DNA of 64,000 bases, from NCBI GenBank assembly GCA_964016885.1, contig OZ024740.1, positions 345,526,001-345,590,000 on the forward strand, written 5' to 3'. The notes beneath the pieces are model-generated. The model did no database searches, was not told where the DNA came from, and saw only the letters and a list, made by a program, of their open reading frames with translations. This DNA comes from Eledone cirrhosa. Its lineage: Eukaryota. Position numbers and translations under genes: made by a program. This document shows positions 26,555 to 26,790 of this stretch, one piece after another. Each line of letters starts with the position of its first letter. Within the stretch, counting starts at the first letter, position 1.

Positions 26555-26790
26555 AGATAGGGTGTGGTAAAAAAGCAGGTGGACCATAACCCACCAGATT
26601 ACAGAGTGGGTAATATGAAAAGATTCAGGACCCCGATGGCTGAGCTCCGGCCGTTTTGACAGCTAGATGTGAACTGTACACCTTGATAAGTTCAGCTAGA
26701 TACCTGCCATTGGAATACTGACACTTTAGTTCGGATCTAGCTGTCGAAACGGCCGGAGCTCAGCTGTCGGGGTCCTGAATCTTTTCATAC
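26555..26790. mobile_element. Inverted pLTR pair (GAGCTC-loop family) between microsatellites
   Basis: 26617-26670 is reverse-complementary to 26735-26790. Confidence 0.85.
26678..26773 (+). ncRNA. Type I hammerhead, U3-A8 core, long stem II, 5-bp stem III
   Basis: acacc-TTGATAA-gttcagctagat...atctagctgtc-GAAACGGC(cggagctca)GCTGTC-ggggt; predicted cut after 26768. Confidence 0.8.

Follow-up and report, generated by a model that had tools for sequence, protein, structure and literature searches.

A large hammerhead with a palindromic stem III loop in a Hydra-clade Penelope-like family of Eledone cirrhosa

The role of hammerhead ribozymes in Penelope-like elements (PLEs) is still open (PMC8557442, PMC11167929; here and below, cited works stand for the accessible parts of their texts and supplements). 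PLE hammerheads with a palindromic loop III, cleavage as dimers and U3-A8 cores have been described (PMC4209133, PMC6765202, PMC7229834), the dimer cleavage by Lünse et al. as treated in the review PMC6765202, and the association of palindromic loop and dimer cleavage is the rule in Metazoa (PMC4209133, PMC6765202). In fungal PLEs, hammerheads with a large helix III undergo cleavage in monomeric form (PMC4209133). The U3-A8 core occurs in Schistosoma, with about 1,300 hits, and U3·G8 in a Saccoglossus row of Fig. S3 of the same work. In the Poseidon hammerhead, a single change at C3 or G8 abolishes activity and leaves insertion in vitro unaffected (PMC11167929). As to size, the Selaginella PLE-X rows, with a loop 2 of ~30 nt, are flagged as deviating (PMC8557442), and the "long helix II" of PMC13725137 measures 6 bp.

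Here, we analysed a motif in a 64,000-nt stretch of the E. cirrhosa genome (GCA_964016885.1, contig OZ024740.1, positions 345,526,001 to 345,590,000; hereafter the window), first noticed in a sequence-only reading of that DNA. Its parts are as follows.

26678..26773, + strand: complete type I hammerhead-shaped motif, right arm of an insertion, decayed (sequence inspection)
26683..26689, + strand: core positions 3-9, U3-A8 variant (sequence inspection)
26690..26745, + strand: stem II, 56 nt, with G10.1-C11.1, a 2x1 loop, the covarying helix and a variable distal part
26749..26767, + strand: stem III, 5 bp, 26749-26753 with 26763-26767
26766..26768, + strand: GUC triplet, cleavage predicted after C17 = 26768 (position from hammerhead numbering)

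Stem I joins 26678-26682 to 26769-26773 with one A·G mismatch in this copy, the stem II helix pairs 26693-26701 with 26735-26743 (G10.1 being 26690 and C11.1 26745), and GAAA occupies 26746-26749. The hammerhead fold proposed by the sequence-only reading is real: every element of the type I core is present (C3UGAN7G8A9 or its variant with paired 3-8, GAAA, G10.1-C11.1 and NUH), and four exact patterns, differing at positions 3 and 8 only, gave 7,001 strict core matches genome-wide against 0 for a reversed-pattern control. The 5-bp stem III, the stem II estimated at ~55 nt and the GUC at 26768 were likewise correctly identified, and the U3-A8 core, which departs from CUGANGA, had gone unmentioned. 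The capping loop, given as GAGCTC, does contain this palindrome, only as positions 3-8 (26756-26761) of a 9-nt loop (26754-26762). Against Rfam release 15, the search proposed at the outset, no hammerhead model matched the window at E up to 1 or the locus and an intact array at E up to 10; present descriptors therefore undercount such hammerheads.

The motif is a pLTR end of a Hydra-clade Penelope-like family, subfamily A, as intact units of this family carry one hammerhead each beside an RT-EN ORF. These units lie in tandem arrays with a 3,531-bp repeat, adjacent units being 3530/3531 identical, and each has a single hammerhead in ORF sense, 191 nt upstream of the ATG. The ORF encodes a 717-aa RT-EN protein with an RWK-like motif, DKT, a CxCX5C linker and, at its C terminus, a GIY-YIG EN, and has no CCHH. 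We assigned it to the Hydra clade by motifs and by eye against the Hydra proteins of PMC8557442, not by tree; (TA)n target, tail at one end and inverted copy are all found in the insertions. A Pfam scan of the ORF returned 0 families, and a homologue search yielded 2,216 proteins (best 54% identity, no useful names). Scanning metagenomes, we obtained eight loci with 34-48% identity to the protein, of which four carry a hammerhead, all small and canonical, three of them representing one element. With the RT fragment of the PLE at 36153-38575 as query, near-identical relatives turned up throughout the 3.0-Gb genome among the 150 candidates scored out of 31,499, and many of them lie in long open frames. 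Tandem arrays in which three to four intact elements are nearly identical (G000:C1:437201317-437212347 and G000:C2:51277541-51285034) make the family look recently active. The motif is also present in contigs of organisms A, B and C, where depth does not equal copy number. We rejected an identity as non-LTR retrozyme (short non-coding tandem repeats with a hammerhead), the unit here being 3.5 kb long and encoding an RT-EN.

The sequence-only reading had assigned the motif physically to the PLE at 36153-38575, as its pLTR. The reading was right about the origin of the family and wrong about that element: the two are 9.4 kb apart, and the motif is of subfamily A, the ends of the PLE being of the B type. 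The window contains ten pLTR arms of the family, distributed as follows.

26554..26789, no strand: whole double-ended pLTR insertion, subfamily A, 3' ends outward, older than and separate from the PLE at 36153-38575
26554..26675, - strand: its left arm, long-tail end, with the ribozyme 3' half only (26631-26675)
26614..26789, no strand: 176-bp inverted repeat formed from both arms, predicted to bury the ribozyme
36153..38575, - strand: separate Hydra-clade PLE, B type, 5'-truncated and frameshifted, with RT and EN remnants
36245..36342, - strand: 3' pLTR hammerhead of that PLE, sense to the ORF, with C3·A8 and a damaged stem III
38465..38561, + strand: inverted short-tail end of that PLE, hammerhead with A13G and C11.1U
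19038..19133, no strand: short double-ended insertion, younger subfamily, each arm cut off in stem II
30293..30402, no strand: short double-ended insertion, B type, ribozyme 3' halves only
18921..18976, - strand: partial pLTR end, A type
52417..52458, - strand: partial pLTR end, B type

The insertion at 26554-26789 is flanked by (TA)n and (CA)n/(TA)n. Its left arm has G12 and the GUC triplet mutated, breaks off within stem II at the hot spot of the family and contains, at 26660, a sequence resembling the 5' strand of stem II; within the 176-bp inverted repeat, the arms are 57/62 identical (-126.5 kcal/mol). On its own, the motif folds unremarkably (z = -0.46), and the probability predicted for its three-stem fold is 3e-5 in isolation and 2e-43 in context. 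This copy is the product of a double-ended pLTR insertion and is predicted to be inert, and the value lies in the family rather than in the copy. A miRNA identity of the locus was also rejected, since the Rfam matches fell under the gathering score and reflect the inverted repeat.

The window holds other repeats. A pLTR fragment comprising the tail only, with no ribozyme part, lies between (TA)n runs at 28742-28825. A 2-kb inverted repeat (55239-57247 and 58832-60841, 95.5% identity), with open frames in its region at 56861-58339(-) and 58829-59608(+), is possibly another inverted retroelement insertion. Further long inverted repeats at 18497-18801 (with the word CTGATGAG in both arms), 17192-18346, 31843-32103, 2199-2617 and 11718-11861 are perhaps double-ended insertions of other families. 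We also observed a SINE-like dispersed repeat of ~200 bp with at least nine copies (5126-5349, 6542-6665, 8003-8184, 9250-9448, 10956-11210, 12561-12836, 33581-33855, 50555-51047) and, at 1-1395, a degenerate tandem repeat in which an open frame of 235 aa occupies 612-1319.

By their 3-8 pair, the 7,001 matches divide into U-A (5,325, 76%), C·A (1,596, 22.8%), U·G (66) and C-G (14), so that G8 is almost lost from the young families (80/7,001). Twelve subfamilies were defined from 245 distinct copies, with 21 copies outside any subfamily and 21 members in the subfamily F set after cleaning; their divergences are biased because copies were sampled by best matches and patterns. The oldest is F, which diverges by 17.5% from its own majority sequence; its core is the canonical C3-G8 and its loop AA-GAGCUC-A. 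A longer region, with G omitted, gave the branching order F, A, A2, B/B2, C1, C4, C2, C3, D/E (bootstrap 50-76); the tree of the 130-nt region provided no root for the lineage. The C3·A8 mismatch characterizes the whole of subfamilies C1, C4 and C2, on the lineage trunk, and the 3-8 pair is hence not kept in every propagating lineage; U3 is back in C3, D and E after this stretch (bootstrap moderate, 53-76). In C1, C4 and C2, a G at position 7 almost always accompanies C3·A8; judging from these sequences, a register shift in which G7 replaces G8 is conceivable.

When the subfamilies are compared in sequence, covariation shows the hammerhead fold to be conserved. In the 12 majority sequences, every core position except 3, 7 and 8 is invariant (12/12), N7 takes all four bases (invariant 0/1), and GAGCUC is fixed at 6/6 positions, with 0/3 for the rest of loop III; the background is 8/33 in distal stem II and 7/34 in the flanks. 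Double changes that keep a pair occur at 2.4-1.4 (G-C/C-G), 3-8 (C-G/U-A) and p2, p7 and p8 of stem II, about six of them independent, on two branches. In the 18 proximal columns of stem II, A and B differ by six changes, which fall into three matched pairs (p = 4e-4, rough and post hoc). In 16 natural copies, 89.5% of cells are paired versus 25-53% when slid, and 8/21 pairs change on both sides, which 11/500 shuffles equal in a test inflated by kinship. RNAalifold recovered all three stems unprompted, with covariation in stems I and II; stem III varies only as G-C/G-U among the majority sequences. In a fixed register, pairing breaks at p7 and p9 in the C-E group, at p8 in G, at 10.2-11.2 in 10/12 subfamilies and at 3-8 in C1, C4 and C2. 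Stem II measures 51-56 nt across subfamilies, and the extension of stem I varies. The copy alignment advocated by the sequence-only reading thus revealed covariation in stems I and II and in the 3-8 pair over 12 subfamilies. The stem II exchange it had quoted holds between subfamilies, but the copies at 38481 and 30365 are no clean example of it, because the former is damaged (3' strand; A13G, C11.1U) and the latter is a 3' half only.

Folding predictions differ among subfamilies. The stem III hairpin alone is predicted to be stable (-3.7 to -7.1 kcal/mol), and the three-stem monomer is the MFE structure in A, A2, B, B2 and D with a predicted probability of 0.59-0.96; the copy at 26678 is predicted not to fold in this way. 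In F, G, C1-C4 and E, the probability is only 0.01-0.34 and competing folds win, often a hairpin with GAAA in its loop. A double hammerhead with swapped stems I and III is predicted to lie 10.1-16.5 kcal/mol below two monomers, its stem III module reaching -13.5 to -16.5 kcal/mol versus -4.9 to -7.5 with a shuffled loop. This gain arises because the loop is palindromic and is no sign that dimers occur; moreover, GAGCUC never changes, so that covariation cannot reveal loop pairing. Some hexamer palindrome would arise by chance within a 9-nt loop in 6-8% of cases, and no relative with another hexamer in the same 9-nt loop was seen at 46 loci examined, among the matches listed (100 of 400). The kissing-loop dimerisation suggested by the sequence-only reading is plausible, given the invariant hexamer and the energy model. 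The family shares with minimal, dimeric PLE hammerheads the palindrome in helix III/loop 3 and the pLTR position in sense to the ORF, whereas its 5-bp stem III departs from their helix III of 0-2 bp, incapable of lone folding.

Insertions record which RNA was copied. Counted from the cleavage site, (TA)n is reached at +15 to +24 by 100 of 240 copies with enough flank and at +95 to +104 by 80 long-tail copies; at most 2/240 could end within 10 nt of the site, in a harvest that favoured copies extending beyond it. Insertion ends thus lie ~16 or ~95 nt beyond the cleavage site, outward on both sides into (TA)n, and the templates were therefore uncleaved or re-ligated, as with Anolis PAc (PMC11167929). 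Of 74 contiguous double-ended insertions (those without a microsatellite between the arms), 60 pair a long tail with a short one. In 71, the two arms derive from a single subfamily group, so that there is no sign of mixed dimers; mixed arms amount to 3/74, all weak. Fifteen of 49 incidental long-tail arms break at -34 to -44, in the 3' strand of stem II (p ~5e-8 vs uniform), nine traverse the ribozyme, and truncation at the cleavage site is restricted to one arm starting near +1. Reverse transcription probably stalls in the folded stem II, and a microhomology effect may lie behind the break cluster.

We consider it somewhat more probable than the reverse (roughly 55%) that the hammerhead of intact elements cleaves itself slowly and in a regulated way, its GAGCUC loop pairing with that of a second copy. 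Read-through transcripts would carry two or more hammerheads, each able to fold alone, and a weakened 3-8 pair together with the competing hairpin over GAAA would hold cleavage low. Two loops could kiss and swap strands to give a double hammerhead that would cut out unit-length RNA from a fraction of transcripts, while target-primed reverse transcription would proceed on uncleaved or re-ligated RNA, often stalling within the folded stem II. The occurrence of C3·A8 in 22.8% of matches, the low three-stem probability in seven subfamilies and the start of only one in 49 arms near the cleavage site speak against a slow ribozyme with paired loops.

A looser pattern gave 400 matches genome-wide versus 37 in the control, and hammerheads with a 40-62-nt stem II are common in the genome: at the loci examined, among the matches listed, at least four other families have a stem II of ~40-62 nt. 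Three of these types combine a 2-3-bp stem III with 4-nt palindromes (GCGC, AAUU and GAUC), and such different loop III palindromes argue for paired loops. In one sister family, the loop that caps a 5-bp stem III is non-palindromic, which, along with the invariance of the palindrome and the lack of mixed arms, argues against them.

An active monomeric hammerhead, in which GAGCUC would be kept for contact with a protein or another RNA or would be the relic of an ancestral dimer loop, is unlikely but keeps a real chance. It would account for a stem III that is stable alone, for the three-stem MFE of five subfamilies and for a hexamer without covariation, and it has a precedent in the fungal monomers with a large helix III (PMC4209133). 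HIV-1 DIS requires flanking purines (PMC7357161), whereas the hexamer of young subfamilies has pyrimidines on its 5' side, which also agrees with a monomer. However, a self-complementary loop fits the metazoan PLE rule (PMC4209133), sister families show such loops again with different sequences, and the energy model strongly favours the duplex.

The other long-stem-II families deserve brief description. Family H (L263-L292, L307), which makes up most of the matches listed (100 of 400), has a canonical CUGANGA core, a 62-nt stem II, a 2-bp stem III, a GCGC loop and a GUA site; it shows (TA)n flanks, inverted pairs and a tail resembling the Hydra tail. Retrozyme-like 485-bp tandem repeats (L293:3029-4560, L294, L295) each carry a long-stem-II hammerhead with a 3-bp stem III and a GAUC loop, and one repeat variant has both sides of stem III changed. 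At L277, L282, L283, L287, L300 and L308, the 5-bp stem III bears a non-palindromic loop of variable length, and, judging from that loop, the hammerhead of this family is likely monomeric. Further families have AAUU and GCGC-like loops (L261, L273, L298, L299; L262, L271, L295(-), L296, L297) and share with family H the words AGTCGG and TGAGC within stem II; L298 stands inverted beside a Hydra-like ORF remnant (36-41% identity). Downstream of the hammerhead, a tail motif CTCTRC...ATHGAGYRCT (L081:1793-1820; L214-L216; L263, L270, L278) is common to the family studied here, family H and metagenome Hydra elements (37% protein identity) and constitutes a candidate RT-binding hairpin. A second tail hairpin displays a paired change between F and the remaining subfamilies.

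It is rather improbable that the motif has become a structural element derived from a hammerhead, with cleavage dispensable, a role as RT binding or pausing signal and catalysis decayed after family F. The near loss of G8 in young families (80/7,001 matches), the spread of C3·A8 subfamilies to 1,596 copies and insertions that reflect uncleaved templates are all compatible with it, as is the unimpaired in vitro insertion of Poseidon with hammerhead mutants (PMC11167929). Yet other PLE hammerheads are known to have U3-A8 and U3·G8 cores (PMC4209133, text and Fig. S3). In addition, the other 12 core positions are invariant with N7 free, and U3 returned in C3, D and E after C3·A8 (bootstrap 53-76, moderate).

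Finally, an artefact of inverted ends, in which a palindromic insertion would give the stems and quasi-palindrome DNA correction the double changes, is very improbable and largely refuted: template switching can in principle alter both sides of a hairpin together and could so yield double changes, and the copy at 26678 does sit within a 176-bp inverted repeat with a stem II 5'-strand look-alike at 26660, but the whole fold exists in single-orientation copies and intact tandem units, and hairpin correction explains neither the covariation at 3-8 and in stem I nor a freely varying N7 and a core that never changes.

A bolder extension, which we regard as unlikely, is that this Hydra lineage has converted its dimer loop to a signal dedicated to RNA dimerisation, in convergence with the DIS of retroviruses, pairing and stem II stop included. 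Its starting point is a self-sufficient stem III with a hexamer in a 9-nt loop that stays fixed while the catalytic 3-8 pair decays. If it were true, paired pLTR RNAs would offer two templates to an RT dimer, the PLE-typical double-ended insertions with one long and one short tail would be explained, and the long stem II would be the cDNA stop.

Whichever reading holds, a single genome provides a natural series, from a canonical C3-G8 ancestor to U3-A8, U3·G8 and C3·A8 descendants, in thousands of copies, and the near-identical intact tandem elements make both protein and RNA assayable. As stem III is predicted to fold alone, catalysis and dimerisation should be separable, which is impossible with minimal PLE hammerheads. 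A search of the accessible literature returned no PLE hammerhead whose stem II has 50-60 nt, whose stem III joins 5 bp to a hexamer palindrome, or whose core is C3·A8; on that scope, the long stem II and the monomer-stable stem III that retains a hexamer palindrome were not found before and appear new.

Among described systems, the metazoan PLE min-HHRs (Cervera and De la Pena 2014, PMC4209133) have in common with this family the type I fold in pLTRs, a helix I of 4-5 bp, a palindrome in helix III/loop 3, a proposed dimer activity, and solo and opposite-strand copies. The sequence-only reading set the motif apart from these minimal forms, and rightly so: in the 56 rows of Fig. S3 of that work, helix II is at most 8 bp with loops of at most 9 nt, whereas stem II here spans 51-56 nt; helix III is at most ~3 bp with a 4-nt palindrome, in contrast to 5 bp with a 9-nt loop; and C3·A8, present here, is found in 0/56 rows.

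Hydra-clade PLEs (Craig et al. 2021, PMC8557442) have the same C-terminal GIY-YIG EN, RWK-like motif, DKT, CxCX5C and absence of CCHH, as well as the same (TA)n targeting, inverted copy beside the pLTR and tail at one end. They are generally <3 kb, whereas the unit here reaches 3.5 kb (3,531 bp), and their hammerheads in File S2 are small, all CUGANGA, with a loop 2 of at most 10 nt and a loop III of 1-3 nt, unlike the large variant described here; in a word search, a 9-letter word of the motif was absent from the accessible supplement. Anolis Poseidon PAc (Frangieh et al. 2024, PMC11167929) likewise uses two tail-defining RT start sites downstream of the hammerhead, uncleaved RNA as template and an AT-rich target. 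Its hammerhead, however, is small and needs protein to cleave, and PAc starts at sites non-homologous to the target, whereas both ends here finish in TAT, matching the (TA)n target. With the hammerhead families of Rfam release 15, the motif shares the core topology by inspection, with no model match.

The DIS loop is laid out as 2+6+1. Like SL1 of HIV-1 (PMC7357161, PMC5874298), the loop described here exposes an apical six-nt palindrome with a central GC, for which a transition from kissing to an extended duplex is possible in principle. Conserved flanking purines are missing from it: they stand on both sides only in the oldest family F (AA, A), whereas in young subfamilies the 5' side is UU or CG. 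The likeness is an analogy, the HIV-1 DIS being of unrelated origin and the hairpin here being stem III of a putative ribozyme.
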